From a virus (taxonomy: Duplodnaviria; Heunggongvirae; Uroviricota; Caudoviricetes), in the IMG/VR virus record IMGVR_UViG_2703718778_000002, positions 1 to 6,661 of that record: a stretch of DNA of 6,661 bases; one strand, 5' to 3'. The position numbers and the translations under genes were made by a program. The first letter of the stretch is position 1, and every line of letters begins with the position of its first letter. This document shows, one piece after another, positions 3,351-3,580 of this stretch. The notes under the pieces are model-generated. The model did no database searches, was not told the origin of the DNA, and was given only the letters and a program-made list of their open reading frames with translations.

Positions 3351-3580
3351 CCATCTACCCATCTACCCGAATGCTCATCATGTCAGTAATGGCGCGGCTT
3401 TCAGCGGGTAGATAGCTTTTTTGGCTCCTCTACCTGCCGTCTACCCTGCTACCTGAAACTGATAAAATCAGGTAGAAGAGGTAGAGAGCTTTTATTAGCC
3501 TTCTACCTGGCCCTCTACCCACTTATCATGTTGAATAATATACGTTTATTTCATTCAGGTAGATGGGGTAGAGGGCTTTT
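3351..3580. repeat. Iteron array, putative origin of replication or primase-binding region
   Basis: Twelve copies of the core (C/T)TCTACC / GGTAGA in alternating orientation clusters: direct at 3353-3368 (x2), 3427-3455 (x3), 3500-3520 (x2); inverted at 3406-3415 (x1), 3470-3488 (x2), 3557-3575 (x2). A 25-bp unit CAGGTAGAnnnGGTAGAGnGCTTTT occurs at 3469-3493 and 3556-3580 (22/25 identical), with a half-unit at 3406-3420. AT-rich stretches at 3521-3556 and 3581-3600 flank it. Confidence 0.6.

Follow-up and report, generated by a model that had tools for sequence, protein, structure and literature searches.

What is the function of a dense cluster of six-letter repeats that lies between the gene of a replication protein and an ssb operon? 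The question is raised by a stretch of Caudoviricetes DNA of 6,661 nt (IMG/VR record IMGVR_UViG_2703718778_000002, positions 1–6,661), referred to here as the window, on which all hexamer, gene and gap coordinates are based. A first reading of the bare letters, which we call the original prediction, proposed a candidate replication origin. Judged by its sequence, the non-coding gap that holds the repeats, at 3304–3588, is very probably the replication origin of an EcCI-type phage-inducible chromosomal island (PICI) of Escherichia coli. This kind of origin is known: it has been described and tested in a close relative, EcCICFT073, and the iteron is the same. We rest this on the array and the way it is conserved, on homology of the protein encoded beside it, and on DNA homology to the experimentally tested origin. 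Dependence on pri and on the gap is taken from the EcCICFT073 work, and iteron binding by a winged helix from the Rep proteins of Staphylococcus aureus pathogenicity islands (SaPIs).

The hexamer array in the gap after pri-rep

All genes of the window are carried on the minus strand. The 285-bp gap at 3304–3588 separates the stop codon of a gene for a 582-aa protein, Pri-Rep (stop at 3589), from an operon consisting of a small open reading frame (ORF) and ssb. The array begins 17 bp past that stop codon, immediately 3′ of pri-rep, so that its position directly downstream of the replication protein and before the ssb operon is as first described. The likely start of the small gene is ATG 3303, according to the RefSeq annotation of a 97.5%-identical island and a PHROG match, and not ATG 3354; the non-coding gap is therefore 3304–3588. 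The longest ORF of the small gene begins at 3354, within the first iteron, and GAGGGGG precedes ATG 3303. Just upstream of the latter codon, CTCGTTTAAAAAGTTTT (3318–3334) is invariant in all alleles.

Counting both strands, TCTACC occurs 12 times in exact form in the 6661-bp window. In 200 dinucleotide shuffles the expectation was 1.44 copies (standard deviation 1.35, maximum 7), and none of the 200 reached 12. Eleven of the exact hexamers fall within 219 bp at 3354–3572, and the twelfth is an isolated copy at 2206. From left to right, the array opens with two plus-strand copies at 3354–3359 and 3362–3367 and a minus-strand copy (GGTAGA) at 3407–3412, all three invariant in seven alleles. Plus-strand copies follow at 3429–3434 and 3440–3445, the second of them likewise invariant in seven alleles, and after them a degenerate GCTACC (5/6) at 3449–3454 that other alleles do not conserve. 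Beyond a short AT-rich spacer, TGAAACTGATAAAATC (3455–3470), are exact minus-strand copies at 3471–3476 and 3480–3485, plus-strand copies at 3502–3507 and 3514–3519, and finally two minus-strand copies at 3558–3563 and 3567–3572, both invariant in seven alleles. The order on the plus strand is thus >> < >>(>) << >> <<, with blocks of one to three. The dense array of the original prediction is real, with 11 exact hexamers; its count of twelve holds only if the degenerate copy at 3449–3454 is included, and the "alternating orientation" that it described does not apply to an arrangement in blocks. The 25-bp unit that it had reported as repeated at 22/25 was found again, in the form of a repeat matching at 24 of 27 positions between 3468–3494 and 3555–3581.

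The flanks are AT-rich, as had also been noted (67–70% AT at 3300–3339 and 70–73% at 3570–3609), though the gap is least stable in its interior, at 3520–3557. This segment is 77–80% AT and reaches a 30-mer dG of -30.9 against a window mean of -41.4 (standard deviation 3.6). This stretch is framed by facing pairs of iterons (3502> 3514> and <3558 <3567), an arrangement that fits the published definition of PICI and SaPI origins and makes 3520–3557 a candidate melting site, or DNA unwinding element. Between 3290 and 3610 we found no DnaA box, no IHF or Fis consensus and no GATC. Tandem Repeats Finder reported only an 8-bp doublet at 3350–3368, and nothing on the scale of P4 crr, whose repeats measure 120 bp.

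Repeats in both orientations can also pair, and the inverted copies might be read as a structured RNA or as terminator hairpins between operons. The transcribed strand does fold well (-102.8 kcal/mol, z = -6.2 against shuffles; z = -4.9 for the DNA strand). The low energy, however, arises because 11 copies of one hexamer are present in both orientations; since all arms share an unvarying hexamer there is no independent covariation, and pairing does not explain the direct repeats. Neither a terminator-like site in the gap nor an Rfam match above noise was found, and the GCTTTT tails that follow three of the units here are absent from EcCICFT073-type alleles. We consider a role as folded RNA extremely unlikely.

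Tested and natural relatives of the array and its initiator

The strongest comparison is with EcCICFT073, which we took from the coordinates in the supplement of PMC6092414 (NC_004431, 1377749–1389210). The gap after its pri gene (6997–7284 of the extracted locus, L009) holds 11 exact TCTACC/GGTAGA hexamers at matching positions. It is about 77% identical to the gap of the window, and the two Pri-Rep proteins are 90% identical, with nearly all differences within the first 150 residues. In the published account, plasmids with pri and ori of EcCICFT073 gave colonies at the restrictive temperature, a Δpri plasmid gave none, and a Δori plasmid gave significantly fewer (PMC6092414). The published primers allow the constructs to be placed on the sequence. 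The Δpri primer is an exact match to an island of strain Nissle 1917, which has the same pri/ori junction; the "pri-Δori" primer ends at the pri stop codon (CAAATTATAAAAACGCGTCGC), and the "pri-ori" primer extends to the start of the next gene. From these endpoints it follows that the Δori construct removed precisely the counterpart of window 3304–3588. The proposal that the locus is the pri-rep plus ori of a satellite or PICI replicon is thus borne out by a homologue that has the same hexamers and whose pri-ori plasmid was maintained (PMC6092414).

The repeat itself had been judged to differ from the P4 type I octamer, TGTTCACC, which was taken to imply a distinct binding specificity. The annotated P4 record confirms TGTTCACC in both ori and crr; the window has no copy of this repeat, and P4 has none of TCTACC. 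The hexamer does therefore differ from the P4 repeat; the specificity that goes with it is not new, being that of the EcCICFT073 origin.

P4 also supplies a competing explanation for the array, namely that it is an accessory element like crr, required in cis and bound by the initiator while replication starts elsewhere in the island. P4 crr (4291–4590) occupies the same place, directly after the alpha gene (stop at 4636), and has initiator-binding repeats in both orientations, with the annotated P4 ori 4.5 kb away. The islands examined, however, have a single cluster each: outside the gap there is no hexamer in the Nissle 1917 island (L002), and there are only isolated single copies in the islands of 2011C-4251 (L001) and EcCICFT073 (L009). 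Moreover, the AT-rich stretch framed by facing iteron pairs lies within the array itself, and the EcCICFT073 fragment of pri plus gap was sufficient for plasmid maintenance (PMC6092414). A crr-like role in place of an origin is improbable on this evidence.

Natural variation gave a second view of which parts of the gap matter. Among 5426 complete E. coli genomes, 565 have a homologue of the gap (69–99% identity), including Nissle 1917 and CFT073. We aligned ten gaps spanning this range. Nine of the 11 hexamer positions are kept in all ten, and mean pairwise identity is 0.90 in hexamer columns versus 0.57 in the other columns; no random placement of eleven 6-column blocks out of 10000 reached 0.90, a result that, because the sequences are related, counts as support and not as a probability. 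Each of 40 unique PICI-type sequences in IMG/VR has 9–12 hexamers. As far as sequence comparison goes, these figures show that selection acts on the TCTACC hexamers and not on the spacers, and they agree with the expectation, set out beforehand, that GGTAGA spacing would be conserved in homologues while flanks drift: spacing is kept, and the spacers drift. Two groups of alleles differ by a rearranged segment at 3490–3520. E. coli FDAARGOS_943 (NZ_CP065615) has a natural variant of the origin (2340–2555 of locus L008) that lacks the middle of the array and retains six hexamers (>> box < > AT <<, where the box is the GC-rich element described below). Since the middle is rearranged, and absent in one natural variant, not every copy can be needed. 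The count of 565 genomes makes the Pri-Rep/ori module of the EcCICFT073 type widespread; as an origin, the window allele adds little to it.

For more distant homologues of Pri-Rep (41–53% identical), too, the gene is followed immediately by an array, which is built of other repeats: vB_KppS-Ant uses TGTTCACC, Serratia aquatilis TGTTCAC and Morganella TGTTCAT. The vB_KppS-Ant homologue is full-length and 41% identical. Read in gene direction, its array has the orientation >><>>><<><<, as in EcCICFT073, and start-to-start distances of 10, 41, 23, 11, 8, 31, 12, 33, 42 and 8 compared with 9, 46, 22, 11, 9, 31, 11, 22, 46 and 9. The same geometry with another sequence means that all copies have changed sequence together. 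The two iteron classes also have different winged-helix regions (PRxYLYHAYLAYM versus TRNSLYRVYLAFM). A joint switch of the repeats together with a different winged helix is to be expected if an initiator recognises the repeats, but not if they serve an RNA or DNA fold, in which helices could vary singly. Switching of the iteron sequence with the winged-helix domain may be useful for predicting which islands share replication specificity. vB_KppS-Ant (LR881103, labelled "Escherichia phage"; origin at 10753–11352 of locus L014) differs from EcCICFT073 in its P4-like iteron, its winged-helix region and its lack of the GC-rich box. It is 16.5 kb long, carries capsid, portal and connector genes, and looks like a capsid-forming PICI.

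The vB_KppS-Ant arrangement also bears on the idea that the repeats are mainly operator sites, bound by a regulator or by Pri-Rep itself so as to control the small-ORF/ssb operon or copy number. The array of the window lies directly upstream of that operon, and the iterons of plasmids commonly serve in autoregulation and handcuffing as well. In vB_KppS-Ant, however, the same architecture precedes a capsid gene and not an ssb operon, and we found no sigma-70-like promoter in 3000–3800 of the window. Gram-negative PICIs are reported to be transcribed in one direction, and the phenotype of the published deletion is a replication defect (PMC6092414). We regard a mainly regulatory function as very improbable.

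The protein that would bind the array is Pri-Rep (582 aa; 3589–5337, minus strand), to which we assign an N-terminal domain (residues 1–140), D5_N, a superfamily 3 (SF3) helicase (DUF5906) and a C-terminal winged-helix origin-binding domain. Pfam matches are to D5_N, DUF5906 and Pox_D5. Sequence matches in the PDB are to the helicase of SaPI5 PriRep5 (7OLA; residues 186–430, E 3e-15) and to the winged-helix origin-binding domain of P4 alpha (1KA8; residues 486–574, E 8e-6). The helicase and winged-helix assignments come from this homology; a single-sequence AlphaFold model had a predicted local distance difference test score of 39 and was unusable. An identical 582-aa protein is on record from E. 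coli. In a large protein search none of the 120 best homologues fell below 98% identity, so that they gave no useful alignment, and a scan of genome contigs with the protein found three loci only. Qiao et al. (2022) identify 7OLA as PriRep5; in their account SaPI Reps are helicases that load themselves and recognise the iterons through a C-terminal winged helix, and iteron binding by these Reps was shown by electrophoretic mobility shift assay (PMC9371898).

The name "primase", used in the original prediction and in annotation, does not describe what can be recognised in this protein. It is a label that traces to TIGR01613 ("primase_Cterm"), which covers the helicase part. Residues 1–140 (window 4918–5337) form a domain conserved among PICI-type homologues; searches of Pfam, NCBIfam, PHROGs and the PDB matched them to no primase family, and a primase catalytic domain is undetectable in them. 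That they might be a remnant of the primase domain of P4 alpha was considered and found unsupported (BLASTP E 0.17).

Put together, these components suggest the following course of events. Induction by a helper phage would lead to excision of the island, and Pri-Rep, as an SF3 helicase, would bind the 11 TCTACC hexamers through a C-terminal winged helix like that of P4 alpha. The facing iteron pairs across 3520–3557 may place oligomers of Pri-Rep on either side of this stretch, where the duplex would melt and Pri-Rep would load itself, presumably as a hexameric helicase. Single strands would be coated by the single-stranded DNA-binding protein (SSB) encoded in the operon just downstream. Some activity would then have to make a primer; because the 582-aa protein has no recognisable primase domain, priming is the least supported step of this scheme.

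Several points weigh against reading the gap as an origin of this kind. The evidence for the window allele consists of homology and conservation. The published EcCICFT073 Δori plasmid lowered the number of colonies and did not bring it to zero (PMC6092414). The middle of the array varies between alleles, and the FDAARGOS_943 variant does without it. The priming step is left unexplained by a protein in which a primase catalytic domain is undetectable by sequence. And a GC-rich box, the most conserved element of the gap other than the iterons, has no place in a model built of iterons and an AT-rich stretch.

A GC-rich box between the iterons

The box, of about 22 bp, lies at 3383–3406 in the spacer between iterons 3362> and <3407, and is CCAGTAATGGCGCGGCTTTCAGCG-like (tCAGTAATGGCGCGGCTTTCAGCG in the window). 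Across alleles of 69–99% identity, CAGTAATGGCGCGGCTTTCAG is invariant in all, with invariant runs at 3384–3391, 3393–3397 and 3399–3403. A stem-loop, GCCA-GTAA-TGGC, was examined as a conserved hairpin and rejected: it is broken in variants with A at the variable position, with no compensating change.

Its distribution reaches well beyond these islands. A scan of IMG/VR for CAGTAATGNCGCGGNTTTCA gave at least 119 loci, and more than half of the unique CAGTAATGNCGCGGNTTTCA sequences among the matches listed are without TCTACC. The largest group, 120 phage records, comes from lambdoid phages whose gene for replication protein O contains the box; CUS-3, HF4s, TL-2011a, many Stx2a phages and phages of Salmonella and Klebsiella belong to it. 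In these O genes the box stands between four and five CCGCACATGA repeats, followed by an AT-rich stretch and a palindrome. In other contexts the flanking repeats differ again (CCCGTGCG, ATGCCGCA, CCCACTT, GTTACAA, ATGTGTAG). Some boxes are found 87–98 bp past AAA_25 helicase genes, and one shares a contig with a Prim-Pol/PriCT_2/DUF5906 gene about 2.2 kb away. In two unrelated contexts a gene for a GIY-YIG nuclease is near a box-containing origin, next to the initiator gene in NZ_CP027133 (819–1628 of locus L135) and 98 bp from the box in locus L087 (11907–12626); this may be coincidence.

Plasmids have the box too. P1-like phage-plasmids that use a Rep3-type initiator have five iterons, then the box (CCAGTAATGACGCGGCTTACAGCG), then a GATC-rich stretch and a DnaA box, and a further set consists of Rep_1 plasmids of 2.3 kb. 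In P7 oriR a diverged copy, CCAGACGTGGCGCGGCCTGCAACG, separates the incC iterons from the Dam sites; we take this copy to be the "G+C-rich stretch" of the P1 origin core; that stretch was reportedly studied by Brendler et al. in 1991. The P1 and P7 arrangement differs from that of the island. There the box is placed between the iterons and the opening region; in the island it has iterons on both sides, and the main AT-rich stretch is about 115 bp away.

Over 14 contexts the motif extends to A-N-S-C-CAGTAATG-R-CGCGG-S-TTTCA-G. In its flanks, position -4 is A in 13 of the 14, and -1 is C and +1 is G in 12 each. Because the extended motif is shared across contexts, chance is an unlikely explanation even for contexts with a single member. 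The Serratia origin has a copy matching at 15 of 22 positions in the same spacer; no box was found in the origins of vB_KppS-Ant and Morganella. A literature search with the box sequence returned no relevant match, and a review mentions G+C-rich flanks in some origins, with unclear role (PMC5043065).

The sharp borders of the box and its spread over unrelated initiators point to a function on the side of the host, as far as can be told from sequence. Tentatively, and with more doubt than confidence, we suggest that the box is a portable element of origins which a shared host factor, such as an architectural protein, the host primase or gyrase, recognises by its sequence, and not a GC-rich spacer. 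If it were an entry site for host primase, it would fill the priming step for a Pri-Rep in which no primase domain can be recognised. As the target of a shared host factor, the box would be a general component of origin function in the mobile elements of enterobacteria, and would account for the "critical G+C-rich stretch" of P1 oriR as well.

The island and its relation to known replicons

The identity of the window as an EcCI-type PICI of E. coli comes from gene order in the 97.5%-identical island mentioned above. This best E. coli match, in strain 2011C-4251, is a roughly 10-kb island flanked by clpS and cspD, with the gene order integrase, helix-turn-helix (HTH) regulator, an icd-like gene, small ORFs, DUF4222, a "DNA primase family protein", the gap, a small ORF, ssb, a small ORF, a fusion of ClpP protease and major capsid protein, and perC. 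Transcription from a single strand, int, an HTH regulator, pri-rep, cos-like sites and an island of about 10 kb are all found by sequence, with helper induction a prediction; this is the organisation of the Gram-negative PICIs of Fillol-Salom et al. (2018; PMC6092414). The traits that define such islands also include an alpA-like regulator and insertion at a position that prophages do not use. Downstream of the origin, the small gene (3025–3303, minus strand; 92 aa, phrog_1231) overlaps the start of the gene for the island-encoded SSB (2606–3028, minus strand), which matches Pfam SSB and TIGR00621. At 59–1948 the window encodes a fusion of a ClpP-like prohead protease with a major capsid protein, the sole recognisable head gene among the island genes listed.

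Two cos-like sites, at 2440–2575 and 1–50 (minus strand), each come right after a hairpin resembling an intrinsic terminator. Phages 1720a-02 and CP-1639 match them at about 90% identity, Stx2 phages and the genome end of mEp460 at about 80%. By position they are equivalent to the mapped cos.1 and cos.2 of EcCICFT073, and they resemble the cos regions of lambdoid and Stx phages, which points to helper phages that would be of lambdoid or Stx type. These sites bear on one further account of the array, that it is a packaging (cos/pac) site for terminase. Packaging sites often hold repeated protein-binding motifs; here, however, the cos-like sites are elsewhere in the window, and we give this account almost no credence.

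Among known replicons, P4 is related through its initiator. P4 alpha is 40% identical to Pri-Rep over residues 141–571, and the 1KA8 match falls on the C-terminal domain. In the island we found neither the type I repeat TGTTCACC, nor two separated cis regions, nor an N-terminal DnaG-type primase domain; P4 has a separate ori and crr, as opposed to a single cluster, and carries its DnaG-type primase domain on alpha. Classical iteron plasmids (Rep3/RepA, as in P1 oriR) are different again, with direct iterons of 17–22 bp, DnaA boxes, an opening region that is GATC-rich or made of 13-mers, and a Rep3-type initiator: the island has a 6-bp core in both orientations, no DnaA box, IHF site or GATC, and an SF3 initiator, and has the GC-rich box alone in common with them.

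The origins of SaPIs are defined by 6–12 penta- or hexanucleotide iterons right after rep, with a central AT-rich region that has at least two opposed iterons per side (PMC9371898). The island has each of these features, with its position after rep, 11+1 iterons and an AT-rich core between facing pairs, and Pri-Rep has, by homology, the helicase and the winged helix. It is unlike SaPIbov1, SaPI1 and SaPI5 in that there is no similarity of iterons, the likeness of the proteins is limited to the helicase core, and SaPIs have Gram-positive hosts and divergent transcription.

EcCICFT073 is the closest system. It differs from the window in its integration site and in its head genes, which comprise a separate capsid and a decoration protein in place of the ClpP/capsid fusion. 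Its gap is rearranged at 3490–3520: before the AT-rich stretch, where the window has >>, EcCICFT073 has a third <, an A-run and a single >, so that the iteron at 3502–3507 occurs in the window-type allele only, and EcCICFT073-type alleles have the A-run at this point and an extra GGTAGA just before it. With the window it shares gene order, the TCTACC iteron, nine of the 11 copies at aligned positions, the GC-rich box and the AT-rich stretch.

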